Part shown: positions 19,180 to 42,008 of the stretch, piece by piece
How positions within the stretch are numbered: the first letter of the stretch is position 1
Layout: every line of letters begins with the position of its first letter
Origin: Acidobacteriota bacterium
GTDB lineage: Bacteria > Acidobacteriota > Vicinamibacteria > Vicinamibacterales > UBA8438
Direction: 5' to 3'
Length of the DNA: 64,000 bases
NCBI GenBank assembly: GCA_011523845.1
Contig: WTFV01000011.1
Location: forward strand, 68,871-132,870
Position numbers and translations under genes: made by a program
The notes under the pieces: model-generated
Seen by the model: the letters and a program-made list of their open reading frames with translations, nothing else
The model's database searches: none
What the model was told of the DNA's origin: nothing

Positions 19180-19298
19180 CGATCCGGTCGCCAGGACGGT
19201 GCCCTGCGGCTGGCGTTGTGGAGCGGGGAATCGAGTCGGACATCGACAACACGTCTGATACATGATCAGTTCATGGTCAACATGATAGCATCTGCCAC

Positions 19299-20420
19299 AT
19301 GATTCAGTCGCTTGAGGGGATGGACCTGGCCGATCGGCTGCGCGAGATGTCGAGTCGGATCAGGCAGCGGGTCGACAGCGTGAAGACCGAGGAGGCCACC
19401 AAGACCGCCCTCGTGATGCCGTTCATCAACCATGTGCTCGGGTACAACGTCTTCGACCCGGACGAGGTCGTGCCCGAGTTCATCGCCGACGTGGGCACGA
19501 AGAAGGGCGAGAAGGTCGACTACGCGATCTTCCGGGACGGCCAGCCGATCATGCTGTTCGAGTGCAAGCACTACGGCGTCGACCTCGGCAAGGAGCCCGC
19601 AGCGCAGTTGTACCGGTACTTCAGCGTCGCCGAGGCCCGGTTCGGCGTCCTGACCGACGGCGTCGTCTACCGCTTCTACTCGGACATCGACGAACAGAAC
19701 AAGATGGACGCGCGGCCGTTCCTCGAGATCAACATGCTCGACGTGGACGCGATCGACGTGGACGAGTTGAAGCGCTTCACGAAGACCTCGTTCGACCTCG
19801 ACCAGATCCTGAGCACCGCCAAGGACCTGAAGTACACGCGCGAAGTCCTCCGGCTGTTGACGAACGAGTGGAACGATCCGTCCGAGGCGTTCGTCCGGCA
19901 CTTCGCTGCCCAGGTCTACGACGGCGTCAAGACGAAGGCGGTGATCGAGCAGTTCACGCGGGCGACGAAGAAAGCGCTGCACCAGTTCGTTGCACGCCGC
20001 ATCAGCGACCGCCTGAAGTCGGCGCTCGAGAGCACCCGAGACGAGGCGCCGAGCGCGGCGGACGACCCGGCCGACACGGGTGCCGAGACGGCCGGCGCGC
20101 CGGAAATCGTCACGACCGAAGACGAGTACCAGGCGTTCTATGCGGTCACCGCGATCCTGAGCCCGGAGATCCAGCCCGACCGGATCGTGCTCCGTAACGG
20201 GAAGAGCCAGTGCGCGGTCCTGCTCGACAACACGAACAGGCAGCCGATCTGTCGGCTGTACTTCAAGTCGCGCCAGAAGAAGCTCGGGATCCTGGGGATC
20301 CTGGGTGAACAGAAGACCGAGGAGCGAGTAACGATCGAGTCGATCGGCGACATCTTCGGTCACGCCGACCGGATCCGGGAAACCGTGCGTCGCTACGACG
20401 CCGAACGCAACAACGGATAG
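19299..20420 (+). CDS. Stand-alone HsdR_N-like PD-(D/E)xK nuclease-fold protein with C-terminal extension
   Basis: 373 aa. EEATKTALVMPFINHVLGYNVFDPDEVVPEF...KVDYAIFRDGQPIMLFECK (D-x13-ExK) is the pattern of type I restriction HsdR N-terminal / Mrr-cat-like domains. No helicase or methylase partner is nearby. Confidence 0.65.
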   Translation: MIQSLEGMDLADRLREMSSRIRQRVDSVKTEEATKTALVMPFINHVLGYNVFDPDEVVPEFIADVGTKKGEKVDYAIFRDGQPIMLFECKHYGVDLGKEPAAQLYRYFSVAEARFGVLTDGVVYRFYSDIDEQNKMDARPFLEINMLDVDAIDVDELKRFTKTSFDLDQILSTAKDLKYTREVLRLLTNEWNDPSEAFVRHFAAQVYDGVKTKAVIEQFTRATKKALHQFVARRISDRLKSALESTRDEAPSAADDPADTGAETAGAPEIVTTEDEYQAFYAVTAILSPEIQPDRIVLRNGKSQCAVLLDNTNRQPICRLYFKSRQKKLGILGILGEQKTEERVTIESIGDIFGHADRIRETVRRYDAERNNG

Positions 20421-20758
20421 TGCCTCACAGTCGGAGAGCCGGTCGCCAGATGGCTGCATGTGCCTGATCGTCAACCGGCGTCGCCCTAAGCGCCTGTTGC
20501 CTGGCGGCGATCGCATACACGCGACCGCATGAGCATGCAGATATGCACGTGCGAGGGCGCATCCGATCCACGCCGTAGACCCCCGGATCGCGCTGTGGCG
20601 AATCCTCGTCCGTCCTGAGCGATTTCGGCCCGGAGCCGGAATCCGGACTGCATATGCAGAAGTCGCCCGGCACCCGTTTTCTTTTGACGCCAAGCGCTTG
20701 AATACGTCATTGGACGTGCTCCGAAAAGTCCAATAAATACGGGCGTTTTCGGTCCGGC

Positions 20759-20788
20759 GCGGCGTGATCACCCACCGATATAATCCCC
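20759..20788. repeat. Transposon right inverted repeat
   Basis: The reverse complement reads GGGGATTATATCGGTGGGTGATCACGCCGC. It shares GGGGATTA.AT and TGATCACGC with the left end. Further CCGAAA and TTTTCGG blocks are shared within about 75 bp. Confidence 0.8.
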
Positions 20789-20796
20789 TTCGGAAT
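20789..20796. repeat. Target-site duplication, right copy (TTCGGAAT)
   Basis: Identical to 12953-12960. Confidence 0.85.
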
Positions 20797-21186
20797 ATCC
20801 GTCGCCGCCCGGATCTCGGCGCACCCGAGCGTCTCGAACGCGAACCCGCACGCCGTGGCCGCGGCCTCGGTGGCGAAGCCCCGGCCCCAGTATGTCGGCA
20901 GCAGTCCGTACAGCAGTTGCAGCTCGGGCGGGTCGAAGAACTCGCGGAAGCCGACGAACCCGATCACCAACGGGTCGTCACGCCGCCTGACGGCCCACAG
21001 GCCGACGGAGCCGGTTCGGAACCGCCGCTCGCTGGCCAGAATCTCCGCCTCGACCCACTCCGCGGATACCGCTTGGCCGTCGAGCAGATAGCGCCGCACA
21101 TCGGCGTCGCAAAAGAAGTGACGCAGCGACGCGGCGTCGGACATCGCGACCGGCGTCAGATCGAGACGTGCCGTGCGCCGTGTCAT
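20789..21186 (-). pseudogene. GNAT (RimJ/RimL-type) N-acetyltransferase, 5' fragment interrupted by the transposon
   Basis: MTRRTARLDLTPVAMSDAASLRHFF...LWAVRRRDDPLVIGFVGF...LLPTYWGRGFATEAAATACGFAFETLGCAEIRAATDIP. Track ORF 20707..21186 then reads into transposon-end sequence. Confidence 0.8.
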
Positions 21187-21191
21187 ACGCG

Positions 21192-21386
21192 AGCCGTCGT
21201 CGCCATGGCCGGTCGAAGTCTAGCGCACGCGGCAGGAATCGCCGGCGACGGCGTGACGATTCACGCTGTTGGACAGTTATGCTTGACGTAACGTGGATAC
21301 GTGCCGCTACGGCGGGCACGGTCCGATGGCAGCGGGAACCGAAGCGTCGTGATCGTCGACTACCACCGGTGAGGAGCACAGGCCCA
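21192..21386. repeat. Copy 1 of duplicated res-5'-end / higB-tail junction segment
   Basis: 21192-21240 is near-identical to 35428-35476, including res codons 1-5 on the minus strand. GGGAACCGAAGCGTCGTGATC...CTACCACC...ACAGGCCCA recurs at 35501-35566 and partly at 36520-36557. Confidence 0.8.
21292..21372 (+). pseudogene. higB (RelE/ParE-family) 3' remnant
   Basis: A short frame opens after a TAA and ends ...SGNRSVVIVDYHR*, 13 nt before higA. VEIVDYH is the usual HigB C-terminus as I remember it. No N-terminal part is present. Confidence 0.45.
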
Positions 21387-21724
21387 TGCGTGAGCCCATC
21401 CACCCAGGCGAGACGCTGCGCGAGGATCTCGACGCCCTCGGCATGAGCGCGTCGGAGCTTGCGCGGCGCATCGAGGTACCGGTGCACCGCATCACTCAGA
21501 TTCTCAACGGCCGGCGCGCGGTCACCGGCGACACGGCGCTGCGCCTCGGGCGCTTCTTCGGAACCTCGGGCGAGTTCTGGCTCAACCTCCAGAAGCTCTA
21601 CGAGCTGCGGCTTGCGGAGCGCGAGAACGGCGCGGCGATCGCCCGGCTGCCCACCCTGGACGACGCCAGGGACCTGCACGCGGCTGCCCCGCCCGGCGCT
21701 TCCTCGGCTCCGGGATCGGCGTGA
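21386..21724 (+). CDS. higA: HigA-family antitoxin (XRE-type HTH)
   Basis: MREPIHPGETLREDLDALGMSASELARRIEVPVHRITQILNGRRAVTGDTALRLGRFFGTSGEFWLNLQ is the classic HigA/VapI pattern. Confidence 0.85.
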   Translation: MREPIHPGETLREDLDALGMSASELARRIEVPVHRITQILNGRRAVTGDTALRLGRFFGTSGEFWLNLQKLYELRLAERENGAAIARLPTLDDARDLHAAAPPGASSAPGSA

Positions 21725-23249: not shown

Positions 23250-23440
23250 CCCGCCTCCTCAGCGGATGCGCGCGATGAGGCGCGGCTCCCCCGTACTCGT
23301 CAATGAGCCAGACGGTTCGCCCCGACGGTTGCGTGCGTCCGGAATCTCCAGGACGCCTCCACACTGTACCGCGTCGGTGTCCATCTCGGCCTTCAGCGTC
23401 TTGAGCGCGCTGCAGGGATCGCGACCATCTTGCGCGTCGC
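23250..23440 (-). pseudogene. Possible DUF6883-like remnant, frameshifted
   Basis: Two minus-strand frames read ...GRTVWLIDEYGG and ...GEPRLIARIR*, directly upstream of the DUF4926 gene. The pairing of these families and the C-terminal pattern are recalled from memory only. Confidence 0.25.
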
Positions 23441-23606: not shown

Positions 23607-25719
23607 TCACTGCCCCGCCCGCAGGTCGTCGAGGAACTCCGAGCCGGGGTCCACGCCCGTCACCAGCAGCCGGTCGCGGGCGCGGGTGCAGGCGACGTAG
23701 AGCAAGTGCCGCTCGGTGCCGTAGACCTCCTCCAGATCGGCGTCATCGCCCACGCGTTCGATCCGGGTCTGCAGAGGAATGACCTCGTCGTCGCACGCTG
23801 CCACCGCGACCGCCCGGAACTCCAGCCCCTTGGCGAGGTGCATGGTGCCGACCGCGACCGACCCGGACACGCCGCCGGACCCGTCGTCGAGCTGCACGGC
23901 GCGCATGCCCGCGGCCCGTACAGCCGAAAGCGCCCGGTCGATCTGCTCCAGTGACCTGACGAACACGCCGATTGCCTGCGGCGCGCAGCCCTCGCGCTGT
24001 CGCGCGCGAAGCCAGTCCGCGATGGCCTTGGTCTCGTCCTCCGGCGAATCGAAGGTCCTGACCTCGGGTGCGGGTCCGTTGAACACCGAGACCGTTGCAC
24101 CTCGCTGCTCCGGGTTGCCGTCGACGTCGGCCAGCTCGGGCGGCAAGAGCCGGTCCGCCTGTCGCCGGATCTGATGCGACGTGCGGTAGTTGATGCGCAG
24201 CGTATGGGATCGCCCCCGCACGTCGACGCCGAGGGCCCGCCAGGAGAATGGTGTCTGGAAGATCCGCTGTCCAAGATCCCCGGCGAAGAACAGGCCGTTC
24301 GGCCGGCTCCCGCCCAGGCCCGCCAGAAACCGCAGTTCCGCGACGCCGATGTCCTGGGCTTCGTCGAGGACGCAGAAATCGAACGGTGGATGCGCAGCCC
24401 CCGCCATCGTCGCCGCCACCCGTCCGAACATGCCGGGCTCCGTCAACCTCCCCCGCTCGGCGAGCGCCGATTGGACCCGCGAGAAGATCGACCACAGCAA
24501 CTCCCGCTGCTTCTCGGCCAACCGGGTCTTGCGGCCGAGCCGCTGCACGTCGCGGTCGTCCTCCCAGCTCGCAAGTTGCCAGGCGTCGACCACCGTGCTC
24601 CATTCCGTCCGAAGGAAGTGCGCACCGAAACGATGACCTTCGACATCGGCAGCCGCCTGCCGGAGCAGCTCCCGGATGTCTTCGTCCGTCGCCAGCTTGA
24701 GGCGGCCGACGTTCGCCGTGTAGAGGCGACGCCCAATGGCGCTCATCGAAATGCACCTCGAGACGCTCGGCGATCTGCGGCTCGTTCCCGATGAGGCGTC
24801 TGAGACGCGTTCGCAGCGCGGTGGCCAGCGCATCGGAGAAGGTGGCCAGCAGCACGCGGCTCTCTGGATGTGCGCGCGCCAGATGCACCGCCCTGTGAAG
24901 CGCCACGATGGTCTTGCCGGTGCCGGCCGAGCCCGAGACACGCGCCGGACCGGTGTACTCGCGTTCGACGAGCTGCCGTTGGGCCGGGTGCAGGAAGACC
25001 GTCCACTTCTCCCAGGGGTAGTCCAGCGCCCGCTCCAGCGCCTCCACGTCCGCCATCACCCGGAAGCGGCGCTGCGCGTCCGGATGCGCGAACGGATCGG
25101 CGCCCGCCACGGCAGGCGCCGGGCGGTCAGGGGCACCGCCGGTCGCAAGCTGCAGCAGTGCCTCGGCGGCCTCGCCCGGCAGGTGGTCGGCGAGGTCGAG
25201 CAGCGTGTCCTCCGTCGCGGCCCGCACGTCGTTCAGCCACTCGACGGGCACGCCGTAGCCCAGCAGATCGTCGTCCGACGCGTGGGCGAAGAACGCCGTC
25301 CGCGACGCCGCCGGTCTGCCAGCCGCGGCCCCTTCGGTGGACGCGGGGACGTCCACCTCCACATACCGCGGCACCCGAATCTCGCGAACCGTCTCGCGGA
25401 TCTCGACGAGTTGCGCAGCGCCCGTCGTCGGATGCCGTTCCAGTCGCCGTCGTTCGGCCCACTGGTACGCCGCGTCGTGATGATCGACGTAGCAGAGCAG
25501 GAAGCTGGAAGCGGTCCGGTGGACGATCAGCCGGATGTCGCGACTGACCCGAACGGACCAGAAGTCCTTGTCCTTCGCCCGGTCGACCTGGTGCAGCTTC
25601 AGGCCCGGATGCGCCGGGTTCATCTGCAGGTCGAACGCCGCGGTCTTGACCGCCTTCTGCTCGTCGCCGGTCAGCTTCGCGAGGCTATCGGTGAAGGTGT
25701 CGGCGATTCGGAACTGCAT
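23607..25719 (-). pseudogene. UvrD/Rep-family helicase with N-terminal RelE/ParE-like domain, split by a +1 frameshift near 24749-24751
   Basis: The upstream frame starts at 25719 (MQFRIADTF...KLHQVDRAKDKDFWSVRVSRDIRLIVHR...VDHHDAAYQWA) and carries Walker A GSAGTGKT. The downstream frame (track ORF 23607..24941) carries VLDEAQD, INYRTS, TMHLAKGLEF and YVACTRARD. 2113 nt = 3n+1. Confidence 0.75.
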
Positions 25720-28223
25720 CAGGTCTCTATCTCGACCGGCACACCGATCTGGTTCGCGACTTCCGTCCGGAGATCCACGTCGACGTCCGGCGCCTTGATG
25801 CTGACGACGAGCGCGTATCGCGCGGTTTGGTCGTATCTCTCGAGGGCTTGGCGGGTCTTCCACCAACCTACCGCAGGGTAGACGGCGAGGCTCCCCCGGC
25901 TCGCGAGATCCGCCGCGCTGCCGCGCCAGATGTCCGCATGCAGTGAACCTCTGTGGCGAGTCTGCTTCCCAATCAACCACTCGGGATCGCTGCCCTGCGC
26001 GCGATGCGTTCCTTCTTCCTCGTCTCGCGCCGCTACGTTGATCCTGCTGCGAAACTCGTCGACCGACTCGAGGGGTCGCTTCACGTCGAAGCGGAGACCG
26101 TGGGACTCGTATCGGTACCGGGAACGGACCCCGCGCCGCGACGGGTTCGGCTCGATGAAGTAGGACAGCGTGACCCGCATCTCGACCTGCGTATCGCCCA
26201 GGCCCTCCAACTCATCGCGTGGCCAGGGCAGGTTGTAGAGATGCATGTCCCGAAGCGTGGGCGACTTCGATCCCTCGCGCTGGAATGGATGCAGACGCTC
26301 CTCGATCACCATCGTCAACGAGTTGTCGACACTCCAGAGCGCGCGATCGAGATCCGGCACGCCGAACCCGCAACGCTGGACCAGACGTCGGTAGTCCGTC
26401 TTCGTGGCCGCGCGGGTTGTGGGCAACGAGGCACGTCGCATGGCCTCGGTCCACTCCGCCGAATGCACGATGAGGGCACGGACAGTCTCCGGCCACAACG
26501 TCGGATAGACGACCATGATTCGAGCCGCGAGCCGCGCAGCCAGCGCCATCGCAGCACTCGTTGCGGTAGCAGTAGTGAAGATCCGTTCGTTGGGTCGATG
26601 ATGCGCTGTCAAGAGGCTGAGGCTGTCGGCCGTAACCGCGGAGAGCCCGTCCTTCGCCGCATTGCCGCCCTCAAGCACGATGTCCGGCTTCAGGCGCCAG
26701 TACTTCTCCCATGACAGTGAGGTCGTGCTGAACGGACTCAGACCGCCCCGCGGAGCAACGGGCGTGTAGTCGTCGGTGTCAGACTCCGTAATTCGCACCA
26801 GCTCCGTACAAGCACCCACCGCCAGCGCGTTCCATGCCTGCGCTGGATCGTGCACGCCATCGGTGTCGTTGGAATACGGGTAGTTGAACCACGCGTTGGG
26901 ATCCTGGATGTTCCCGGCCGACAGTACCAGCAGACGCGGGTGCTCACCAGCTCCGTCGACATCGGCCGCAAGTGCGTCCACGGCTGCCGACCACGCGGAC
27001 GGGCGGCCCCGGTCGCGGTCGTCGGGAGTCGTGACGGCCATGCCGAACACTCGAGGCCTCCTCGGAGCCGCGATTTCCGGACGGGCCACCGCCTCTCCCG
27101 TCACGTAACCATGGTGCCGCGAGTCTCCGTCGCCGCCGGGCCCGGGCAGCAGCTTCACCGATTCCAAACGGTGATCGAGCGCCACCGGGTCGGTGCCTTC
27201 AACAAGCGGCGTCAGATCGCCGGCGAGCGCCACGCCGGCCATCTGGGTCCCGTGGCCGTGCGCATCGTCGGGGCCCCAGCCGGGCTCGACGGTGTGCTGA
27301 TCGGCCGGCTCGAGTGCCGGGCTCAAGAACGGATGTCCCCGGTTGACGCCCGTGTCAAGGAGACAGACGCGCGGAACCTCATCCGTGTCGGCTGGGAATT
27401 GAGTCCGTGCAAGCAACTCGTCAAGCCATTCCTGCTGCTCTTCCGGCGGTAGGGAGCCAAAGAAATCAGCGGTCTCCTTGGCTCGCCGAAGCTCCGCGAT
27501 GCTGTTGAGCGTCAGCATCGAGTGCTCCATCTGTTCCAGTGAAGCCGACACCAACACCACCGTCCGCTCAGGAAACACCAACTCGCCAGGCGCAAGCCGC
27601 ATCCCCTGCGCTTCGGCTCGCTTCCGAAAGGACGCGATGATTGTCCGTCGATCCCTCCGGACCGGGAGCCAAACTTCCCACCAGAGTGCGCCTTCATCCC
27701 CCGTCGGGAACTCCGTCGCCGTGTCGGTCCAGAGGGCACGCAGGCTCGCCGCGCGAATCTCGCGAATCGCATCGACGAGTTTCCTGTTGTCGCGTACGCG
27801 TCCGATGCGATCCCGCCTCTCCTCCAGGTAGTCCCGGATGAGCCGCTCGAAGTGATCGAGCCTTCCGTCGGGCACGAAGACTGTCGCGAGCGTTCGATCA
27901 CGCTCCTGCCGGACGTTCAGCAGCTCCATTCCGGACCGCTCGCGCGCCAGGCTCTCGAAGGCCAACTCGATGTCAGGAAAGCTCTCGAACTCGATCCGCA
28001 ACCCCAACTCGTCCAGGCCGGCAGCCTGCTGAGCGTCTCGGGCGGCGTCAGCCTGCGGCCGCAACGCTTCGAACTGTCGCTGCAGTGCTCGGGCGTGGCG
28101 GGCGCGGTGGCGCTCAGGTACGACAGCGGAAGCTCCGAACTGCTGTGGCGACCTATACGGCTGCGTTTCTGCGAAGCCTTCGATGATGAAGTGTCGACTT
28201 CTTCGGTCCGTCCCGTTCGCCAT
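25719..28223 (-). CDS. ietS: S8 subtilase-family serine peptidase (IetS-like)
   Basis: 834 aa. Catalytic-type motifs CLLDTGV (Asp), HGHGTQMAG (His), LSAGN (Asn), ATATSAAMA (Ser). There is a long N-terminal non-protease region. The stop overlaps the helicase ATG (ATGA at 25717-25721). Confidence 0.8.
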   Translation of the reverse strand: MANGTDRRSRHFIIEGFAETQPYRSPQQFGASAVVPERHRARHARALQRQFEALRPQADAARDAQQAAGLDELGLRIEFESFPDIELAFESLARERSGMELLNVRQERDRTLATVFVPDGRLDHFERLIRDYLEERRDRIGRVRDNRKLVDAIREIRAASLRALWTDTATEFPTGDEGALWWEVWLPVRRDRRTIIASFRKRAEAQGMRLAPGELVFPERTVVLVSASLEQMEHSMLTLNSIAELRRAKETADFFGSLPPEEQQEWLDELLARTQFPADTDEVPRVCLLDTGVNRGHPFLSPALEPADQHTVEPGWGPDDAHGHGTQMAGVALAGDLTPLVEGTDPVALDHRLESVKLLPGPGGDGDSRHHGYVTGEAVARPEIAAPRRPRVFGMAVTTPDDRDRGRPSAWSAAVDALAADVDGAGEHPRLLVLSAGNIQDPNAWFNYPYSNDTDGVHDPAQAWNALAVGACTELVRITESDTDDYTPVAPRGGLSPFSTTSLSWEKYWRLKPDIVLEGGNAAKDGLSAVTADSLSLLTAHHRPNERIFTTATATSAAMALAARLAARIMVVYPTLWPETVRALIVHSAEWTEAMRRASLPTTRAATKTDYRRLVQRCGFGVPDLDRALWSVDNSLTMVIEERLHPFQREGSKSPTLRDMHLYNLPWPRDELEGLGDTQVEMRVTLSYFIEPNPSRRGVRSRYRYESHGLRFDVKRPLESVDEFRSRINVAARDEEEGTHRAQGSDPEWLIGKQTRHRGSLHADIWRGSAADLASRGSLAVYPAVGWWKTRQALERYDQTARYALVVSIKAPDVDVDLRTEVANQIGVPVEIET

Positions 28224-28237
28224 GCTGCGCCTTGCCG

Positions 28238-29227
28238 CTACACTCCTCTCGCAGCCAGCTTATCGGCGATGGTCTGGCGCTCCTTCAGCATCGTCCGGAT
28301 ATCCGCTTCGCGAACCAGAGACCGATCGTGAATCAACGCATCCTTCAGCACCTCGTCGGCGGCGCGAACGACCTCCGCGTAGCTCAGGCCCGCCGCGAGG
28401 TTGGCGAGGCTGCGCCAGCGGATCCGCTTCACGGCCTGTGAGGCGAGCCGTGCCCTCAGAACCTGCACAATCTGCGTCCTGTCGGGCAACTCGTAGTGCA
28501 GGATGTCGTCGAAGCGACGGAAGAGCGCGGGATCGAGAATGCCTGGATGGTTGGTCGCGGCAATGACGAGGCTGTGGGAGCGATCCTGCTCGATCATCTG
28601 GAGAAAACTGTTGAGGACACGTCGGATCTCGCCGACGTCGTTCGCGAGCCCACGCTGCGAGCCAATCGCGTCGAACTCGTCGAAGAAGTACACCCCCCGC
28701 GTGCGTCCCGTCGCCTCGAAGATCTGCCGCAGCTTGGCCGCCGTCTCTCCCATGTACTTGGTGATCAACCCATCGAGGCGGACCTGAAGAAGCGGAAGCC
28801 CCAGCTCTCCAGCCAGTACCGACGCGGTCAGCGTCTTGCCGGTTCCGGGTGGCCCCGTCAACAACAACTTGCGCCGCGGCGCGAGACCTCGCTCCAGGAT
28901 GCGCCCGGCGTGGCGCTGCTCCCGAATCACGCGCCGAATCTGGTCCCGGAGCTCCTCTCCCAGCACCATCTGTCCCAGTCGTGCGCCCGGATAGGACGCT
29001 TCCAGCAGATTCGCCAGCTCGCCGCGCGGCCGCCCGATCGGAACCGGCGCTCCGGCCCCCGTTTGGCTCTTGGCGCGATCGATCAGCGTGCGCAGCTCCT
29101 CGGCTAGTCTGCCATGCCCGAGCCTCGCCTCGTGGGCGGCCACCTGCATGGCGACGGAGAAGAAGCGGTCGTCATCGCCCTCCGCGTGCGACTTCAGCAG
29201 CGCCTTGAGCTGTTCACCGCTGGCCAT
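28238..29227 (-). CDS. ietA: AAA+ ATPase (IetA-like)
   Basis: Walker A GPPGTGKT, Walker B VYFFDEFD, sensor VIAATN, PALFRRFD. The ATG at 29227 has GGGAGA 7 nt upstream, so the track start at 29242 is less likely. 14-nt gap to the peptidase gene. Confidence 0.8.
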   Translation of the reverse strand: MASGEQLKALLKSHAEGDDDRFFSVAMQVAAHEARLGHGRLAEELRTLIDRAKSQTGAGAPVPIGRPRGELANLLEASYPGARLGQMVLGEELRDQIRRVIREQRHAGRILERGLAPRRKLLLTGPPGTGKTLTASVLAGELGLPLLQVRLDGLITKYMGETAAKLRQIFEATGRTRGVYFFDEFDAIGSQRGLANDVGEIRRVLNSFLQMIEQDRSHSLVIAATNHPGILDPALFRRFDDILHYELPDRTQIVQVLRARLASQAVKRIRWRSLANLAAGLSYAEVVRAADEVLKDALIHDRSLVREADIRTMLKERQTIADKLAARGV

Positions 29228-29258
29228 CAAGCATTCTCCCACGTGGGTTCGCGGCGAT

Positions 29259-32078
29259 TCACACCCGGAACACCTTCATCACCTCGTCGCCGAGGTGGTT
29301 GATGACCTTGACGGCGATGCGGCCCGACGCGGGGCGGTCGAACGGGCGCGAGAGGTCGCTGTGGAGCGACGCCCACGCGTCGGCGTCGATCTCGGCCTTC
29401 AGCGTCGTCTTCAGCGCCTTGTAGGGGTCGTTCGCGCCGAGGAAGTAGGCCTGCCGGACGAAGAAGCTCTCCTCGTTGTAGTCGGTGTCGACGAACCAGC
29501 AGGCGATGCCGTCGGCGCCGTCGCTGCGGACCTCGCCGGTGGTCGGGTGGAAGACGTCCACGCCGTTGATCCGCACCTGGATCCGCGTGCCGCCGTCGCC
29601 TTCGCCGCCAACCGGAAGGATGTCGATGTCCGGCTCGCCGAAGATGACGAACAGGTTGCCCTTGCCGGTGTTCTTCAGCTCGTCCGCCATGTGGAGGTCG
29701 GCGTTCATGCGCGCCTTCAGGACCGGGATGCGGCCGAGGCGGTTGAACTCCGACGCGTGCGCTTCGTAGTTGAACGCGCAGGCGATCAGGACGTCGAAGC
29801 CGGCGTCGCCCGCCTCGCGCGCGGCCGCCACCAGGTCCGGACGGGCCACGGTGCCGAACTCGGGGCCGACGAAGATCCCGGCGCGCTTGTCCGGGCCGGC
29901 ATCCCCATCGCCTTCGCGGTAGCGTCCCTCCGCGCAGATGTACTCGCCCGGCCAGGGCGTAACGGCGGCGAAGGCGATGCGATCCTCCTTGTGCACCTGC
30001 TGCACGCCGGCAGTCGCGAGCTGCTCCAGGATCATGGTCGCGAAGTCCTGTTGCGGCCCGTAGTCGGCCCTCGGCTCGGCGGCGCGGTCGATGAGCTCGT
30101 CGTCCTCGTCGACCGCCAGCACGCGATGCGGCGACAGGCTCTCCACCGTGAACGGTCCCGCCACCCGGACCTTCCGGTTGTCCTCGTAGGGCTTGTCGTA
30201 GAGGTACTCGTAGTCGGCCCGGGCCGCGATGGAAGCGTCGATCTCCTGTTGCCGGGCGATGCGCGCCTCCCACCACAGTCGATGCGTCTCGGCCGCCTCC
30301 GCCGGCCAGTCCTCGGACGCCTCGCGGGGAACCTGCCACTCCTCCCAGTCGGCATCGAGCCGGGCGTTCAGGTCGTCGCGCAACGGCTCCAGCGTCTCCT
30401 GCCAGCGCTCCCAGATGCCGTCGATCTCCGCGTTGTTGGCGATCGACTTGAGCGTGATGTGCGGGACACACTCGTAGACGAACCCCTGCCGGACGTCGCC
30501 GCGCGTCGGAGCGTCCGATGGCGCCTTTCGCGTGATCTCGGCCTCCTTGCGCTGCCCTTCCGGACTGTCAGCGAGAAGGTAGTACGGGTAGCGCGCGCCC
30601 ATGATGCGGGCACGGGCGAGGGCCAGCGCTACTCGGGAGGTGTCGATGGTGATCCAGCGGCGACCCCATTGCTCGGCGACGTATGCTGTGGTCCCGGACC
30701 CACAGGTCGGATCAAGTACCAGATCCCCGGGGTCGGTTGTCATGAGGATGCAGCGTTCAGCAACCGAACGGTTAGTCTGAACAACATACACCTTGGGGTC
30801 ATCAAATCCGGACGTAGTTGTGTCAGTCCACAAATTGGAGTAAGGAAAAATGCGGAAATCATCCAAGAACCTAACATAACGAAGTGTGTTTCCAATGAAG
30901 ATCATGCGCTTTGCGCAGGCGAGCCTCTGCAGTCCAGCCGCATCAGTCTTGAAAGTACCCTTATTGACGCCGAATGACTTTCCTTCGTAAGTGAACTCCC
31001 GAACATCCCCGCCCTGCGCCGGCCTCTGACTGGTAATGTTGTCGTGCGAGAAAATCCTGAGAGCCTTTGGATCTACGCCAGACCCTATCCATTCTGATGT
31101 GGTGCGCCTTTCACCACTTGCGTTCTCTCCGAACGAATACTGACTCGCACCAGCGGTACCAGGTTCTTTGAGCTGAAAAATCGGCCGGTACTTAGGAGCT
31201 TCAGACTTACTAAACCACAATAGAAGATCAAAAACACCTGATAGAGAGTCTGATGAGGTCGACGATGTCTTCTGGAACGCAATCTCGGCAATGAACCGCC
31301 CATCCCCGAACACCTCATCCATCAACGCCCGCACGCGGTGCACATTCTCATCCCCGATCTGCACGAAGATCGAACCGCTCTCCGCCAGCAGCTCGCGTGC
31401 CACAACCAACCGGTCCCGCAGATACGTCAGATACGAGTGAATCCCGTCGCGCCAGGTATCCCGGAACGCCCGGACCTGTTCCGGCTCCCGGCTGATGTGC
31501 TCCGCCTTGCCGTCCTTCACGTCGCGACTGGTCGTCGACCACTGGAAGTTCGAGTTGAACTTGATGCCGTAGGGCGGGTCCAGGTAGATACACTGCACCT
31601 TGCCGCGCAACCCTTCGCGCTCGGCGAGGGACGCCATCACCTGCAGGCTGTCGCCGAGGATCATCCGGTTCGACCAGTTGGCGTCGTGCTGGTAGAACTC
31701 GGTCCGGGCGTTATCGCTCGGCAGCCCGTTGAAGTCGGCGAACAGATCCGGCTGGGCCTCCGCGCCGTCACCGCCCTGCCCGGCCCGTCCGTTCCTGCGC
31801 TGCCGGCGGAGGTCGTCGACGAGCACCTTCGGGTGGACCTTCTCCTGGATGAACAGAGGCGGCGCCTGCACGACGAGGTCGGACCAGTCCTGCGCGTCCT
31901 TGCCGCGCCAGACGAGCTGTGGATCAAGGTCGCGGTTGCGGCGCTCATAGGCGACCTGGACGGGGCTCTGCTCGGCGCGTTCCATCACGGACCGGAATTC
32001 GGCCGTGGGGATGTTCTTGCGCGACGCCTCCTGGTGCCTGAACGTCTCGACGGCCTTCCTGGATCGGTTCTTCGGCAT
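29259..32078 (-). CDS. mod: Type III-like DNA methyltransferase (Mod), beta-class N6A/N4C
   Basis: Start MPKNRSRK at 32078. Motif IV IYLDPPYG lies upstream of motif I DPTCGSGTT (beta-class order), with a low-GC presumed target-recognition region between them. Long C-terminal domain. Confidence 0.85.
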   Translation of the reverse strand: MPKNRSRKAVETFRHQEASRKNIPTAEFRSVMERAEQSPVQVAYERRNRDLDPQLVWRGKDAQDWSDLVVQAPPLFIQEKVHPKVLVDDLRRQRRNGRAGQGGDGAEAQPDLFADFNGLPSDNARTEFYQHDANWSNRMILGDSLQVMASLAEREGLRGKVQCIYLDPPYGIKFNSNFQWSTTSRDVKDGKAEHISREPEQVRAFRDTWRDGIHSYLTYLRDRLVVARELLAESGSIFVQIGDENVHRVRALMDEVFGDGRFIAEIAFQKTSSTSSDSLSGVFDLLLWFSKSEAPKYRPIFQLKEPGTAGASQYSFGENASGERRTTSEWIGSGVDPKALRIFSHDNITSQRPAQGGDVREFTYEGKSFGVNKGTFKTDAAGLQRLACAKRMIFIGNTLRYVRFLDDFRIFPYSNLWTDTTTSGFDDPKVYVVQTNRSVAERCILMTTDPGDLVLDPTCGSGTTAYVAEQWGRRWITIDTSRVALALARARIMGARYPYYLLADSPEGQRKEAEITRKAPSDAPTRGDVRQGFVYECVPHITLKSIANNAEIDGIWERWQETLEPLRDDLNARLDADWEEWQVPREASEDWPAEAAETHRLWWEARIARQQEIDASIAARADYEYLYDKPYEDNRKVRVAGPFTVESLSPHRVLAVDEDDELIDRAAEPRADYGPQQDFATMILEQLATAGVQQVHKEDRIAFAAVTPWPGEYICAEGRYREGDGDAGPDKRAGIFVGPEFGTVARPDLVAAAREAGDAGFDVLIACAFNYEAHASEFNRLGRIPVLKARMNADLHMADELKNTGKGNLFVIFGEPDIDILPVGGEGDGGTRIQVRINGVDVFHPTTGEVRSDGADGIACWFVDTDYNEESFFVRQAYFLGANDPYKALKTTLKAEIDADAWASLHSDLSRPFDRPASGRIAVKVINHLGDEVMKVFRV

Positions 32079-32098
32079 GGGACACACCCGCGGTCGGC

Positions 32099-32314
32099 TC
32101 ACCCGGCCTTGTACGACGCCACTGGCAAGGCTCGGGTCTCGAGCGTAGCCAGATCGAGCTTCCTCGAAGCGTGGTCTATATCGAAACCGACCGGATTGCC
32201 GTCGGCGTCGAGGTCGACGTTGAGTCCGGTCACAACCTCGCGGGCTTCCACGCCTGGGCCGGCTCTCAGTTCCACGTACAGGCTGTCGGTGTCCGGGTAG
32301 TAGTGGAGCTTCAT
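32099..32314 (-). CDS. DUF2283-like small protein
   Basis: MKLHYYPDTDSLYVELRAGPG...VGFDIDHAS. An alternative upstream ATG at 32389 overlaps the res stop (ATGA) and would add 25 aa. Confidence 0.6.
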   Translation of the reverse strand: MKLHYYPDTDSLYVELRAGPGVEAREVVTGLNVDLDADGNPVGFDIDHASRKLDLATLETRALPVASYKAG

Positions 32315-32385
32315 GACGAGTCCCTTCCAAAACCCGCAGTCGAAGAAGGCATCGTGGATTGTCTCACCGTCGGCCAGCGTCACGG

Positions 32386-35300
32386 TCATCGTGTCACCCG
32401 CTCGACCAACGCCTGGAACTGCGCCCTCAGCGCGCCCTCGAAGTCCTCCTCCATCGTGTAGACGTCGGTCAGCTCGGCGAAGGCCCAACGGCCGTAGGCG
32501 CCGAGGTTGTTGACGCCGGGGACCCAGTAGGTGTCCATCGTCGTCTTCTTGTCCTTGGCGTCCTCGCCCCGGTAGCCCTTCACCTCGACCACGAGGCGGA
32601 GCAGGTCCTCGTCGCCGCGGCCGTCGTCGACGAGCACGACGAAATCGGGGAGGTAGCGGCGCGTCCGGGAACCGTAGCGGTAGGGCACCTCGAGGCCGAG
32701 GGCGTGGTTCTTGACGTAGGCGCGCACCCGCGGATGCGATTCGACCACGAGGCAGAACTGGGCCTCCCAGTCGCTGTCGCACACGACCCAGTTGACGTGG
32801 CAGCGGCCGGGGTCGGTCTCCCAGCGGAGCTTCTTCGAGGTCGTGAAGCGCACGTGGAGCGTCGAGCCGACGGGGTTGTAGGGGTCCAGCATGGCCTTGA
32901 TCGGACGCTCGCCCAGCAGATTGGAGACGATCCCGGCCGTGATACGTTCGCACGCCATGTCGGCCAGCTCCTGGTACATGAGCTGGGCCGGATACGTCCC
33001 GCCCTTGCAGTCGAGATGACCGTCGAGCCACTGGCGCGTGATCCGCTTGAGCTGGCCGAACAGGTGCAGCTTCGGCTCCTCGCCGGGATCCCGCCACCTG
33101 GTCTCCAGCAGCCGCTTCGTCAGATGAAAGAGCAGGGTCGACTTCCGCAGGTCGCGGGTGTGAATCAGGTTCAGATCGACCCCTTCACCGATGATGCCCT
33201 CGACGCGCGTGATGGACGGCCCGACCAGCGCGGGGGTGAGCTCCAGCGTCGAGTCGTCGTTGAAGCGGGCGGTCAGGCGCTCTTCGGGGAGCTCGACGCG
33301 GTAGCCCGCCACCCGCGGGAAACGGATCTCGCAGGCGTCGCGTTCCGGCGTGATCGCCCGCACCAGCACCGTCTCCCGCGGCGGCGGCGGCTTGACCGGC
33401 ACCGGCTTGGCGGTGAAGTCGAACGGGATGCCGAGCACGTCGGCGTACTCGACGTCGAAGAGGCCGTCCTCGTTCGGGTCGTAGGACTGGCGGCGCAGCG
33501 CGCGCCCGACGACCTGCTCGCAGAGGAGCTGCGTCCCGAAGGCGCGGACGCCCAGGATGTGGGTGACGGTGCGGGCGTCCCAGCCCTCGGTCAGCATCGA
33601 GACGGAGACGACGCAGCGGACCGATCCGCCGAGGGTGTCCGGCTTGCCGACCGTGTTCATCACCTCGCGGAGCAGATCCTGGTCCGACAGGTGCTCGGCC
33701 TGCTTGCGGTCACCCGTCCGGGCGACGATCTCCCGCCGGAAGCGCTCGATCTCGTCGCCGGCCGCGGCGCGGAAGTTCTTGTCGAGCGCCTCGCCCGAGT
33801 CGAGCTGCTCGCTGTCGATGAGCAGCGTGCGGGGACGGGGGTGCGGGTTGCCGTGCTCGTCGAAGTTGCGAAACAGCTTCAGGCGTCCGTTGACCAGCGT
33901 CGTGGCGCCGTACTCGTTCTCGCGGAAGAAGCCGGAGACGAAGTCGTAGACGAGCTTCGAGGTCGAGGTGTTGTTGCAGACGATGATGAAGCAGGGCGGC
34001 ACGGCGATGCCGGCCTTCTCCCACAGCTCGAACGTCTGCTCGTAGTGGCCGTAGAGCGCCTGGAGCGCGGTCTGCAACTCCACCGGCAGGCTGAGCGGGT
34101 CGAGTCCGCCCGCCTTGCCGCGGCCCCGCTTCGGCATCTTCGGGCGGATGTGCTCCCACAGGTTCCGGAACTTCGGCATCTCGCCGCCGGGGATGTTGTC
34201 GGCCACCGGCACGCGCGGCAGCTTCACGATGCCGCACTCGATGGCGTCCATCAGCGAGAAGTCGCTCGCCGTCCAGGGGAACAGCGTCCCCTCCGCGTAG
34301 CCGGAGCCGCGCAGGAAGAAGGGCGTGGCCGAGAGATCGATCACGCGCTGCAGGCCAAGCTTCCGCTGCACCGCCTCGAGCCCGGAGATCCAGACCCGCG
34401 CCGCCTCGCGGTTCCGCTCGGCCTCCTTGCGGTCGTCGCCCTTGAGCGGGCCTTCTTCGTCCTCCCCGGCCGGCTTCTCGCGGTAGCAGTGGTGCGCCTC
34501 GTCGTTCAGGGCCAGGATGCGCTTCATGCCCATCAGGCCCGGCATGACGCGCTGCAGCATCTGCCCTTCGGTCTCCTTCGTCCGCAGCTCGGGCCCGGGC
34601 CCCTGCAGCAGGGCGCGACCGCCCTTCGACAGTTCCAGCGTCTCGCGCCGCAGGAACGCGTGGTAGTTGGTGACGACGATCTTCGCCCGCTCCAGGTCGC
34701 GGAGCATGTCGTTCGGCACCAGCTCGCGGCTCGCGTAGTAGCTGTCCGGATCGTTGGGCTGGAGCACCCGCAACCGGTCGCGGATCGTCACGCCGGGGGT
34801 CACCACCAGGAAGCCGCGCGTGAACCGCCGGCTGCCCGGCCGGCGCACCGCGTTGATCGTCTGCCAGGCGATGATCATCGCCATGACGGTGGTCTTGCCG
34901 GCGCCGGTGGCGAGCTTCAGCGCCAGCCGCGCGAGGCCGGGATTGGCCCCTTCGCTGGCGGCGTCGATCTGATCGAGAAACCGGCGGCCCTCCTTGCCGA
35001 GGCTCGGCGCCACCTCGGTCAGCCAGATCGCGGTCTCCACCGCCTCGACCTGGCAGAAGAACGGCCGGATGTCGCCGAACCGATGGCTGCGCCAGTGGGT
35101 CAGGAGCCGTGCGGTCTCCGGCGTCACGCTCCAGGCGTTCGGATCCGGCAGCTCGCGCCAGCGATCCACATGGTGGCGGACGCCGCCGATGAACGCCGTC
35201 AGGTCGTACTGCTGCGCCTCGGTCCCGAGCGCCTGCGCGGCCGCGTCGAAGAGGATCTCCTCCTGCTGGATGCCCTTCTGCTTCTTCGGCTTCGGGATCG

Positions 35301-35442
35301 GCGTGATGAAGGCGACCTTGCGGCGCTCGGAGAGGATCCGGTTCGTCGGCTGGCCGCTCGGGTCGAGCTCCCAGTGGCGGGACGGGTACTCGTACGGCGA
35401 GTTCAGGATCGGTTGCTCGAAGAATGCAGCCGTCGTCGCCAT
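32386..35442 (-). CDS. res: Type III restriction enzyme Res subunit (SF2 helicase-nuclease)
   Basis: 1018 aa. MATTAAFFEQPILNSPYEYP. Motif I KLATGAGKT, motif II ALNDEAHHC, SVSMLTEGWD, QVVGRALRR. The C-terminal region has endonuclease-like EVKG. Confidence 0.85.
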   Translation of the reverse strand: MATTAAFFEQPILNSPYEYPSRHWELDPSGQPTNRILSERRKVAFITPIPKPKKQKGIQQEEILFDAAAQALGTEAQQYDLTAFIGGVRHHVDRWRELPDPNAWSVTPETARLLTHWRSHRFGDIRPFFCQVEAVETAIWLTEVAPSLGKEGRRFLDQIDAASEGANPGLARLALKLATGAGKTTVMAMIIAWQTINAVRRPGSRRFTRGFLVVTPGVTIRDRLRVLQPNDPDSYYASRELVPNDMLRDLERAKIVVTNYHAFLRRETLELSKGGRALLQGPGPELRTKETEGQMLQRVMPGLMGMKRILALNDEAHHCYREKPAGEDEEGPLKGDDRKEAERNREAARVWISGLEAVQRKLGLQRVIDLSATPFFLRGSGYAEGTLFPWTASDFSLMDAIECGIVKLPRVPVADNIPGGEMPKFRNLWEHIRPKMPKRGRGKAGGLDPLSLPVELQTALQALYGHYEQTFELWEKAGIAVPPCFIIVCNNTSTSKLVYDFVSGFFRENEYGATTLVNGRLKLFRNFDEHGNPHPRPRTLLIDSEQLDSGEALDKNFRAAAGDEIERFRREIVARTGDRKQAEHLSDQDLLREVMNTVGKPDTLGGSVRCVVSVSMLTEGWDARTVTHILGVRAFGTQLLCEQVVGRALRRQSYDPNEDGLFDVEYADVLGIPFDFTAKPVPVKPPPPRETVLVRAITPERDACEIRFPRVAGYRVELPEERLTARFNDDSTLELTPALVGPSITRVEGIIGEGVDLNLIHTRDLRKSTLLFHLTKRLLETRWRDPGEEPKLHLFGQLKRITRQWLDGHLDCKGGTYPAQLMYQELADMACERITAGIVSNLLGERPIKAMLDPYNPVGSTLHVRFTTSKKLRWETDPGRCHVNWVVCDSDWEAQFCLVVESHPRVRAYVKNHALGLEVPYRYGSRTRRYLPDFVVLVDDGRGDEDLLRLVVEVKGYRGEDAKDKKTTMDTYWVPGVNNLGAYGRWAFAELTDVYTMEEDFEGALRAQFQALVERVTR

Positions 35443-36556: not shown

Positions 36557-36705
36557 ATGCGCGAACCTATCCACCCCGGCGAGACGCTGCGCGAGGACCT
36601 CGACGCGCTCGGCATGAGCGCGGCGGAGCTTGCGCGGCGCATCGAGATACCTGTGAACCGCATTTCCCGGATTCTCAACGGCCAGCGAGCGGTTACCGGC
36701 GACCG
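36557..36705 (+). pseudogene. Truncated higA paralogue (first about 50 codons), preceded by a higB tail ...VEIGDHHR*
   Basis: MREPIHPGETLREDLDALGMSAAELARRIEIPVNRISRILNGQRAVTGD. Similarity then switches abruptly to mod. Confidence 0.75.
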
Positions 36706-36712
36706 AACTCCG

Positions 36713-36955
36713 GGCCAAAGAAGATCCCGGCGCACTTCCTCCGGGGCCGGCATCCCCCTCGCCTCCGCGGTAGCGTCCCTCCGCGCAGGTGTACTCCCCC
36801 GGCCACTGCGTGACGCCCACGAAGGCAATGCGACTCTCCTTGTGCGCCTGCTGCACGCCGGCGGTCGCCGGCTGCTCCACGACCACCGCCGCGAAGTACT
36901 GCTGCGGCCCGTAGTTGGCCCGCTCGCGGCGCGCTCGATGAGGACGCCTCGCCAT
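36713..36955 (-). pseudogene. Fragment of a paralogous mod gene
   Basis: About 80 % identical to 29862-30110 in direct orientation. Encodes ANYGPQQYFAAVVVEQPATAGVQQAHKESRIAFVGVTQWPGEYTCAEGRY, compared with ADYGPQQDFATMILEQLATAGVQQVHKEDRIAFAAVTPWPGEYICAEGRY in mod. Confidence 0.75.
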
Positions 36956-37071
36956 GTACACCCTCGCTCCGCTCGCCCTCTCCAAAGGAGCTCCGCCACC
37001 GCACCCTCGACGCCTGATGTCTGCTAGGCTGTACAGGTTCGCTCAAAACACGCCTTGATGGTAGTGCTACA

Positions 37072-38895
37072 ATGAGGATACGCCGACTTAAGCTCGCAAA
37101 CTTTCGCGCCGTCGTCGACGGTGAAGTTGTCTTTCCGGGCCACACAGTCATTATTGGCGGAAACAGTGTCGGCAAGTCGACCCTCTGCGACGCCTTGGAC
37201 CTCGTGCTCGGGCCGGACCGTCTATCCCGAACCACCGCGATAGACGAACATGACTTCCTCGAGCGCCGCTATCTCGACGCCGACGGAACTCCCATTCGCA
37301 TCGAGTTGGAAGTCGTGATAACCGATCTAACGGAGGACGTCTTCACCAAGTTTCGGACCCACCTCGAGTACTGGAACACCTCGACAAACCAACTCTTGGA
37401 CGAAATGGCCTCGCCGGAAGATGTCGACAGCGACAACGTCGTGCCCAGCCTTCGCATTAAGTTCGAAGGCGCATACGACATTGAGGAGGACGAATTCAGC
37501 GCGGAGACCTACTTCGCCAGCCCTCCGGTAGAAGACGGAGAACGCCGGGAACGGGTCTCGCGCGCGGCCAAGCGACAATTCGGGTTCATTTATCTCCGGG
37601 CGCTGCGGACCGGCGCCCGGGCGCTTAGCTTGGAACGCGGCTCCCTGCTTGATGTCATCTTGAAGCTCAAGGAAGATGATCGATCCGCTATGTGGGAACA
37701 GACGCTTGCTTCGATGGAGGACCTGGATCCCGCGATTGATGCCATTCCGCAGCTCAGAGCGATACTTGATCAAATCGACCGCCGCGTTCGACGCTTCGTT
37801 GGTTTGTCCGCTGACGACCGCACATTTCGTCTCTATCCGTCGGCGCTGACGCGAGAAAGCCTCCGCCGGTCAATTACCCTCTTTGGCTCTTCCGAGCGCT
37901 CGAATACACCGGTGCCGTATTGGCGGCTCGGGTCAGGCGTTATCAATTCCATGGTGTTCTCCTTGCTGACCTTCATTGCCGAACTCAAGTCGAACGTGAT
38001 CTTCGCCATGGAAGAACCCGAGATCGCGATTCCGCCACACACCCAGCGCCGCATCGTTCAGTTCCTTCAGGGAAGAATGGACCAGTCGATCCTCACGACG
38101 CACTCCCCGTTTGTTCTGGAGCAGTACGCTCCGGCCGACGTCGTCCTTCTCGAAAGGGCAGATGACGGCGTCGTCTCCGGTCGCCGGATTGAGGTAACTG
38201 GAATTAAGGCCAAGACCTACAAAGGTAATCTTCGTCGAGTGTTAGCGGAGGCCATGCTCGGTAATGCTGTGATCTGCGTTGAAGGGATCTCCGATGCCGA
38301 AGTGGTCCACACCGCGTCGGCCGTTCTCGAGAAAAGTACGCAGGAAGGAACCTACACGCCGCTCGACCTATCCGGCGTTACGGTTGTGCACTGTGAGGGA
38401 GACGGTGCGTTGTTGCCCTACGGCCAGTTTTTTTCGGGCATCGGTCTCAAAACCTATGCTTTCTATGATAGACAGAAAAACGCTGCCATCCGCGACCAGA
38501 TCGAAGACGCTTTCGATTCAGTGTGGGGCCTCGAACAGACGGGGATCGAGTATCTGCTTGCGGAAGAAGTTTCTATCGATGTCATCCGCAACTTCCTGTC
38601 AACGGCATCCGGATGGGACAACTATCCGCATAATGCAATGACGCCCGGATTGTACACGTACGAGCCGGACGCTGACGACGACGCGGTTCGTGAGCTTTGT
38701 AAACGCGTTCTCAAGAGGAGGAAAGGGTCCGGCTACGCGCAGGCCTTGGTCGAGCTTTGTTCCAATGACGACCTGCCGGGAATTGTTGTGGAGGGTTTGG
38801 AGCGCATCAGCGAGGACATGCCGAGCGAACTCTCGACCGTCGTTGAGGACGGCAGTCACGAGGTCGACGACGAGCTGACCGCTCCCGTGAGTTGA
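37072..38895 (+). CDS. gajA: OLD-family ATPase/Toprim nuclease (GajA-like)
   Basis: 607 aa. MRIRRLKLANFRA, Walker A GGNSVGKST, FAMEEPEIAIPPHTQR, and a C-terminal Toprim-like AVICVEGISDAEV ... VVHCEGDG. Confidence 0.85.
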   Translation: MRIRRLKLANFRAVVDGEVVFPGHTVIIGGNSVGKSTLCDALDLVLGPDRLSRTTAIDEHDFLERRYLDADGTPIRIELEVVITDLTEDVFTKFRTHLEYWNTSTNQLLDEMASPEDVDSDNVVPSLRIKFEGAYDIEEDEFSAETYFASPPVEDGERRERVSRAAKRQFGFIYLRALRTGARALSLERGSLLDVILKLKEDDRSAMWEQTLASMEDLDPAIDAIPQLRAILDQIDRRVRRFVGLSADDRTFRLYPSALTRESLRRSITLFGSSERSNTPVPYWRLGSGVINSMVFSLLTFIAELKSNVIFAMEEPEIAIPPHTQRRIVQFLQGRMDQSILTTHSPFVLEQYAPADVVLLERADDGVVSGRRIEVTGIKAKTYKGNLRRVLAEAMLGNAVICVEGISDAEVVHTASAVLEKSTQEGTYTPLDLSGVTVVHCEGDGALLPYGQFFSGIGLKTYAFYDRQKNAAIRDQIEDAFDSVWGLEQTGIEYLLAEEVSIDVIRNFLSTASGWDNYPHNAMTPGLYTYEPDADDDAVRELCKRVLKRRKGSGYAQALVELCSNDDLPGIVVEGLERISEDMPSELSTVVEDGSHEVDDELTAPVS

Positions 38896-41494: not shown

Positions 41495-41740
41495 CCTCTA
41501 TCAGGGAGGGTACAGACGCCGCGCAAGAGTCAACATGTCGTTCCCAGAGACGGCAAGTGGGCTGTGCGTAGAACTGGCGCTGTTCGCGTCTCGCGGAAGT
41601 TCGACACGCAGCGTGAGGCCATCGAGGCTGCGCGTGACATCGCTCGAAGGCAGGGAACCGATTTGTACATCTACGGGCAGGATGGTCGAATTCGCGAACG
41701 CAACTCTTATGGCAAGGATTCGTTTCCACCGAAGGGATAG
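41495..41740 (+). pseudogene. DUF2188-like small protein lacking a canonical start codon
   Basis: Hand translation: ...RKSQHVVPRDGKWAVRRTGAVRVSRKFDTQREAIEAARDIARRQGTDLYIYGQDGRIRERNSYGKDSFPPKG*. The frame opens after a TAA at 41492. The first in-frame start-type codon is GTG at 41564, inside the conserved core. Confidence 0.5.
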
Positions 41741-42008
41741 ACGTCGAGTTGATGAGCTCCGAATTCGACAGAAACGTATTCCTGAATTGCCCGCTCGACA
41801 AGGAAATACGAACCTATCCTTCAGGCCGTTCTGTTCGATCTCATCAAGTCGTCTCGGTACTCAATCCATGACCTCAGCAGATGTCAAGCCCGCAAGGCTG
41901 GGAAATGTTATAGACTCAACATGCCCTGTCGCTACCAGGCGGCGATCTCGGACTTGGCGGGAAGTGACATAGAAGCACATCGCGGCAATTGTTGCGACGA
42001 GGATTCGA

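Follow-up and report, generated by a model that had tools for sequence, protein, structure and literature searches.

The 64,000-nucleotide (nt) stretch of contig WTFV01000011.1 from an Acidobacteriota bacterium, referred to here as the window, carries a mod gene (29259..32078, minus strand) encoding a 939-amino-acid (aa) beta-class N6/N4 DNA methyltransferase of a Type III-like restriction-modification (R-M) system. A sharp block of low GC content lies within this gene. The block is very probably the hypervariable target-recognition domain (TRD) of Mod, exchanged as a cassette, and its low GC content is a family-wide trait which does not mark a recent event. Under this proposal, a very widespread Mod family pairs with a restriction subunit (Res) of the BPTD_3080 type. 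The Mod would consist of two near-constant arms, bearing the catalytic motifs and a long C-terminal extension, on either side of a TRD that occurs in many divergent versions. These versions would be swapped as cassettes through homologous recombination in the conserved, motif-encoding flanks, with putative junctions in this gene at codons ~236-252 and ~450-466. Arrival of a new TRD cassette would confer a new methylation specificity and hence a new restriction specificity.

Composition and identity of the variable segment

In sliding windows of 120 nt, GC content was found to be 0.41-0.57 over positions 30720-31319, against 0.61-0.75 in the remainder of mod and in the neighbouring res gene. 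The backbone of the window has a GC content of about 0.70-0.72. The in-frame GC content of third codon positions (GC3), taken in 30-codon windows along mod, is 0.37-0.63 in the block and 0.80-1.00 outside it. A likelihood fit with two change points delimits the low-GC3 block at 30663..31304 (minus strand, codons 259-472), a segment which holds motif VIII, the TRD, motif X and motif I, with a GC3 of 0.537 inside and 0.920 outside (twice the log-likelihood difference, 148). Block and remainder of mod differ in GC3 with a Fisher p of 6.6e-34, and the lowest-GC 600-nt stretch of the entire window begins at 30701. An initial annotation of this DNA had noted a sharp low-GC block inside mod and a host-like composition of the conserved parts of the gene. 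Both descriptions are borne out, the former by the discontinuity in the two profiles and the latter by the GC3 of the mod arms, 0.90-0.93. The GC3 of res is 0.95.

Amino-acid composition was considered as the source of the dip and was ruled out. If the residues of the block were encoded with the synonymous codons favoured in the mod arms and in res, a GC3 of 0.944 would be expected (simulated standard deviation (SD) 0.016), and the observed value is 0.531. The dip is thus a shift in synonymous codon usage.

The start of mod is the ATG at 32078, a choice backed by the family alignment; the long open reading frame (ORF) call opens at an upstream TTG. The Mod protein matches PF01555 (N6_N4_Mtase) at 121 bits (cut-off 26.7) and the PADLOC profile MTase_III (PDLC03632) at 1384 bits, with nearly its whole length covered. 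Its sequence matches in the PDB are the Mod subunits of EcoP15I (4zcf) and Helicobacter pylori (6k0w). Motif IV, IYLDPPYG, lies at 31566..31589 (minus strand) and corresponds in the translation to residues 164-171, with DPPY at 167-170. Across 74 family members, the columns of I164, D167, P168, P169, Y170 and G171 are invariant and that of Y165 is nearly so. Motif I, DPTCGSGTT, lies at 30687..30713 (minus strand; residues 456-464 in the translation). Its columns are invariant or nearly so in the same alignment, and it aligns with the FxGSGTT motif of 4zcf and 6k0w. The positions given to both motifs by the initial annotation were correct. The motif order of Mod is that of the beta class, with DPPY N-terminal to motif I and the TRD between motif VIII and motif X. 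The same order, DPPY before FxGxG, is found in the solved Type III Mods of EcoP15I, H. pylori and Mbo45V (7dsu), in which the TRD is likewise inserted between motif VIII and motifs X/I.

The TRD proper, defined as the hypervariable segment of the family, covers about residues 271-435 (30774..31268, minus strand). Family mean pairwise identity falls to 0.19-0.53 in this segment, compared with 0.8-0.98 in the neighbouring conserved segments which bear the motifs. Alignments to 4zcf and 6k0w span Mod residues 130-292 and 440-468, and the segment between them is essentially unmatched; identity to the solved Type III Mods is about 15-20% and is confined to the catalytic core. A block that fails to match these structures while its flanks align is what would be expected of a TRD. 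The placement of the block at the TRD, between motif IV and motif I, had been proposed in the initial annotation and agrees with these alignments. Sequence comparison supports the view that the block holds the TRD and is the variable part of a Type III-like Mod of the beta class. The TRD should set the sequence methylated by Mod, and hence the sequence restricted by the Res-Mod complex, so that a different cassette should give a different specificity.

An AlphaFold model of the full-length Mod has a mean predicted local distance difference test score (pLDDT) of 53, with the catalytic core below 50. Residues ~230-420 are modelled with confidence, as is part of the C-terminal extension, and the TRD (pLDDT 76-89) is predicted as a mixed beta/alpha domain. 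The top Foldseek matches of the model are 4zcf (E 4e-10), 6k0w and 7dsu. The template modelling (TM) scores are low, and with a model of this quality the fold matches are no more than supportive. The poor confidence outside the TRD is probably due to a family alignment that is diverse in the TRD only. This is a practical warning for the modelling of families with near-constant arms.

Residues ~500-939 of Mod (29259-30578, minus strand) form a highly conserved C-terminal extension of about 440 aa, without a Pfam match. The EcoP15I Mod chain (644 aa) shows no counterpart of this extension, its alignment covering only Mod residues 130-292 and, weakly, 440-467. In its length of 939 aa and in this extension, the protein differs from the solved Type III Mods.

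Mosaic genealogy of the gene and diversity of the recognition domain

Relatives were compared segment by segment at the protein level and, for loci L081, L082 and L084-L086, at the nucleotide level. At the protein level they are of two kinds. Relatives of the first kind are 88-97% identical to this Mod in the arms and 21-47% in the TRD, and those of the second kind are 70-90% identical in the TRD and 71-86% in the arms. At the nucleotide level, L084 shares 96% identity with this mod in the C-terminal (C) arm, 89% in the N-terminal (N) arm and 75% in the TRD. The corresponding values are 95%, 91% and 42% for L085, and 94%, 90% and 46% for L086. L081 is 90% identical in the TRD, with 76% in the C arm and 79% in the N arm. 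L082 (P0007) is 86% identical in each arm and 89% in the TRD, and at third codon positions it shares 71% (N arm), 73% (C arm) and 74% (TRD). Third-position identity reaches 74-77% for the closest TRDs and 87-92% for the closest arm relatives (C arm).

In a nearest-neighbour map with 20-codon resolution, the L085/L084/L086 group is closest up to residues ~250 and again from ~450, and L081/L082 are closest in between. Informative sites were scanned in four triplets, each containing this mod gene (Q). Sites that group Q with L085 outnumber those that group it with L081 by 385 to 43 in the arms, and the ratio is reversed to 18:284 in the TRD (p 3e-129). The triplet of Q, L084 and L082, which is alignable throughout, gives p 4e-32. 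A genealogy of the block that differs from that of the arms, with breakpoints in the conserved flanks, is supported by these comparisons.

The breakpoint zone on the 5' side of mod is estimated at codons ~236-252 (31325..31371, minus strand). In the four triplets, the nearest relative switches there at codons 236, 242, 252 and 207, the last being an outlier, and in the nearest-neighbour map at residues 241-260. The zone on the 3' side is estimated at codons ~450-466 (30681..30732, minus strand), with switches at codons 449, 450, 466 and 466 in the triplets and at residues 441-470 in the map. This second zone covers the codons of motif I, as would be expected from the model of recombination at conserved motifs described for H. 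pylori (PMC3467074). Both zones fall at the GC3 change points and at the limits of the block in the initial annotation, where a search for a recombination breakpoint on each side had been suggested; the comparison with homologues places one at each.

The family is large and strikingly well conserved. A search returned at least 8000 matches at E <= 0.001, and the best 120 share 70-90% identity with this Mod. Metagenome-assembled genomes (MAGs) of Acidobacteria account for two of the closest named matches; the best matches and the backbone genes of the window point to a soil bacterium of high GC content as host. Among 61 proteins with arms at least 88% identical to those of this Mod (median pairwise identity 91%), the TRDs fall into 40 clusters at 60% identity, and median TRD identity is 31%. 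Over 3486 pairs of loci, median identity is 33% in the TRD against 77% in the arms, and a positive correlation between the two is absent (rho -0.14). Hosts of different phyla can also carry similar TRDs. The TRDs of a Latescibacterota MAG and a Cyanobacteria MAG are 85% identical to each other, and the same value was found between a Candidatus Didemnitutus MAG and one labelled Dichelobacter nodosus.

The GC3 trough and competing explanations

The GC3 of the TRD is below that of the arms in all 77 usable genome loci, which represent many phylum-level groups and any TRD type. The difference (TRD minus arms) has a mean of -0.278 and a range of -0.04 to -0.56. The value for this gene, -0.41, ranks 8th of the 77 and lies within 1 SD of the trend (residual -0.1, SD 0.11). 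The trough is also present in 8/8 metagenome loci and in all six loci that were fetched individually. It is therefore shown to be a standing property of the TRD cassettes across the family, at about 0.28 GC3 below their own arms. The low GC content had been read in the initial annotation as the mark of a recent import, a claim that this distribution does not support. In the family mean profile, GC3 falls across residues 256-435 only, with shoulders in the conserved flanks, and other poorly conserved segments of the arms hold a GC3 of 0.72-0.76. Against the GC content of the host, GC3 rises with a slope of 1.36 in the TRD (r 0.70) and 1.67 in the arms (r 0.87). As the GC3 of the TRD tracks host GC, the trough is an offset and not a fixed foreign composition.

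It is possible, although short of probable, that the trough is a persistent state of the family and no scar of transfer, with TRD cassettes everywhere about 0.28 below their arms and following the host. Two causes can be put forward. Mobile DNA tends to be AT-richer than its host while tracking host GC, and the TRDs may form a pool of independently circulating segments with this AT offset. Such an offset fits a TRD that is the most frequently exchanged part of the gene, and the shoulders of the profile would be expected from variable junctions. Alternatively, the recombining arms may be subject to a force that raises GC, such as GC-biased gene conversion, from which a TRD unable to pair with its homologues is exempt. 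If the trough is indeed persistent, from either cause, an intragenic GC dip is unreliable for dating or inferring single domain swaps. The family would then also provide a natural within-gene system for measuring what keeps bacterial GC high.

The possibility that a foreign specificity cassette of lower GC was recently recombined into a resident, host-adapted mod, with the GC dip as its not yet ameliorated footprint, is unlikely. The break in composition is sharp and falls at the recombination junctions, and the closest arm relatives (94-96% identical at the nucleotide level in the C arm) hold other TRDs, both as expected from such an event. However, the whole family shows the trough, its size in this gene is typical, and the TRD is already low in GC3 in the closest TRD relatives, whose arms are GC-rich (0.49 against 0.79 in L081 and 0.54 against 0.82-0.85 in L082). 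No near-identical TRD was found in a different backbone, the best being the 89-90% nucleotide identity of L081 and L082. A TRD-only scan of metagenome contigs yielded eight loci at 71-79% aa identity, none closer than L081 or L082, and a TRD-only search of a set of 5.8 billion proteins returned short gene fragments (<=330 aa) alone, which are uninformative on donors. Amelioration would be expected to leave an excess of AT-to-GC changes on the branch of this TRD; of 11 polarised sites, a small number, 3 are AT-to-GC, 7 are GC-to-AT and 1 is of another type. The initial annotation had suggested a recently imported specificity cassette. The cassette part is upheld by the mosaic genealogy and its junctions, and the recency is not, as the trough is universal and a near-identical donor was not found. 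Close homologues that share the block at host-like divergence had been named there as evidence against import, and this pattern was found in part, in L082, whose arms and TRD show equal divergence. The sister lineages may accordingly be the ones that swapped their TRDs, and the TRD of this gene the older resident. A recent import is not supported by the sequences compared.

An explanation free of exchange, in which diversifying selection drove rapid divergence of the block in place, with a drift toward AT, is very improbable. Homology extends along the full length of all TRD versions (35-45% identity, E 1e-20 to 1e-40), and among loci sharing this TRD type, TRD and arm identity are positively correlated (rho 0.58), as divergence in place would predict. 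The explanation is contradicted by the triplet tests and by the 40 TRD clusters carried on arms of 91% median identity, and other poorly conserved arm segments keep their GC3. The TRD identity of 90% to L081, with arms of 76-79%, and of 42-46% to L085 and L086, with arms of 90-95%, is incompatible with a single tree. Hardly credible at all is an artefact in which two co-occurring family members were joined through their conserved arms during assembly to give a chimeric mosaic. Both junctions are crossed by an intact reading frame, L082 has both arms and the TRD at similar divergence, and the architecture of arms plus trough recurs in >85 independent loci, some of them in records titled as whole chromosomes. 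Given these loci, a chimera is unlikely as a general explanation of the mosaic, an argument drawn from the family pattern and not from the reads of this contig.

Several points weigh against the preferred reading, that of a TRD exchanged as a cassette with a low GC content typical of the family. Exchange by recombination is a mechanism deduced solely from mosaic patterns. That the TRD of this gene sets a methylation motif is a prediction from sequence comparison. The homology of all TRD versions means that part of their diversity could stem from fast divergence in place and not from exchange. If the window stems from a metagenome assembly, a chimeric join is conceivable in principle: soil and sediment metagenomes are rich in this family, and arms so strongly conserved could mislead an assembler. 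Finally, the data fit both suggested causes of the persistent trough alike.

Related systems and gene neighbourhood

The hypervariable centre of Type III mod genes, proposed as the TRD, has been described in Haemophilus and Neisseria (PMC1557822), and en-bloc transfer of the recognition domain in mod genes has been reported (PMC3311624). The recognition domain of modA12 has a GC content of 28%, against 40% in its flanks, which was read as evidence of horizontal transfer (PMC3311624, Table 2). In H. pylori, TRDs move between non-orthologous Type III mod genes by recombination at conserved flanks (PMC3467074). The exchange of TRD cassettes and a recognition domain of lower GC are therefore already published for Type III mod, and this locus is a further example. 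What is added is that the trough is family-wide and occurs in hosts of any GC, a modest generalisation.

As in modA and modB of Haemophilus and Neisseria and in the mod genes of H. pylori, conserved 5' and 3' arms surround a hypervariable recognition domain, the phylogenies of TRD and arms are incongruent, and recombination is inferred in the conserved flanks. The lower GC of the recognition domain relative to its flanks is shared with modA12. Unlike the phasevarion genes modA and modB, which have a repeat tract, the mod described here lacks a phase-variation repeat. The hosts of this family are environmental, high-GC bacteria, in contrast to the host-adapted pathogens that carry modA/modB and the H. 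pylori genes, and TRD diversity is much larger than in those genes, the sampled set having 40 clusters on arms that are nearly identical. The HsdS subunits of Type I systems likewise have modular hypervariable TRDs recombined at conserved spacers, giving new specificities on a constant scaffold (PMC1557822, PMC3077401). HsdS, however, is a subunit of its own that carries two TRDs and lacks catalytic motifs, whereas a single TRD lies inside the methyltransferase here. Nothing usable was found in the literature on BPTD_3080 or on the GC content of hsdS.

Because the closest full-length homologues (arms 94-96%) hold other TRD versions, the recognition sequence of this Res-Mod system is not inferable from them, but only from relatives that share its TRD. 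The reading of a low-GC recognition domain as the sign of a particular acquisition, made in the literature and in the initial annotation, is unsafe in this family: every member checked shows the trough, and the dip alone is no basis for a particular or recent swap. With near-constant arms, dozens of TRD versions and a distribution over many phyla, the family is convenient for linking TRD sequence to methylation motif.

The res gene (32386..35442, minus strand) lies upstream of mod and encodes a 1018-aa protein with a helicase and a C-terminal nuclease, as does the adjacent Res of Type III systems. Its product matches PF04851 (ResIII) at 32.4 bits (cut-off 22.5) and the NCBIfam model NF046055, 'BPTD_3080 family restriction endonuclease', at 1325 bits (cut-off 800). 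The match to PF19778 (RE_endonuc), at 21.2 bits, is under its cut-off of 23.4. Membership of the BPTD_3080 family and the weak match to the PADLOC REase_III profiles (E 1e-4) are unlike the usual Type III Res. A small DUF2283 gene (32099..32314, minus strand; PF10049 at 50 bits) separates res from mod. The usual Type III gene order is mod then res, and the order here, res-DUF2283-mod, differs from it. The pairing of res and mod is kept in L081 and L084-L087.

Directly downstream of mod is ietA (28238-29242, minus strand; PADLOC IetA 238 bits, Pfam AAA), followed by ietS (25719-28223, minus strand; PADLOC IetS 128 bits, Pfam Peptidase_S8). The order of res, mod, the AAA ATPase (IetA) and the S8 peptidase (IetS) is repeated in L085, L086 and L087, which belong to other organisms. 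A UvrD helicase is next after IetS in L085 and L087, with no UvrD call in L086, and the small gene ahead of mod is DUF2283 in L085 and L086 and another gene in L087. The R-M system, an Iet-type defence pair and a helicase thus seem to move together as a single module (23607-35442 of the window). In the window, the UvrD-like helicase gene (23607-25719, minus strand), downstream of ietS, is split across two reading frames, with the N-terminal domain in the ORF 23743-25980 and the C-terminal domains in 23607-25055. In relatives it is one protein of about 690-700 aa. The split gene is either a frameshifted pseudogene or the product of a sequencing error.

A 244-nt relic of a second mod copy lies at 36702-36942 (minus strand), about 1.3 kb upstream of res. 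It matches Mod residues 672-742 with 85% nucleotide identity. A 55-nt match (82%) to the 3' end of mod was found at 23370-23421, just past uvrD. The two mod fragments thus flank the res-DUF2283-mod-ietA-ietS-uvrD block, one on each side, which suggests replacement or rearrangement of an earlier cassette here. Silent TRD copies and shufflon-like repeats were sought in the window, and a second TRD was not found. A search for phase-variation repeats with Tandem Repeats Finder (TRF) returned no repeat array in mod and two trivial two-copy arrays, both in res.

The window has no tRNA genes. A lower-GC island at 13000-43000 (GC 0.56-0.69, against about 0.71 in the backbone) carries defence and mobile genes. 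They include an IS1595-family transposase (13419-14519), an HSDR_N-domain protein (19266-20420), a GNAT protein (20707-21219), an HTH protein (21353-21724), an OLD-family ATPase with AAA_15 and TOPRIM (37018-38895) and a DUF3800 protein (41973-42749). Two stretches of the island, 15551-15700 and 41601-41950, have a GC content of about 0.51-0.53 in 600-nt windows; no further stretch of the window is comparable to the TRD block of mod.

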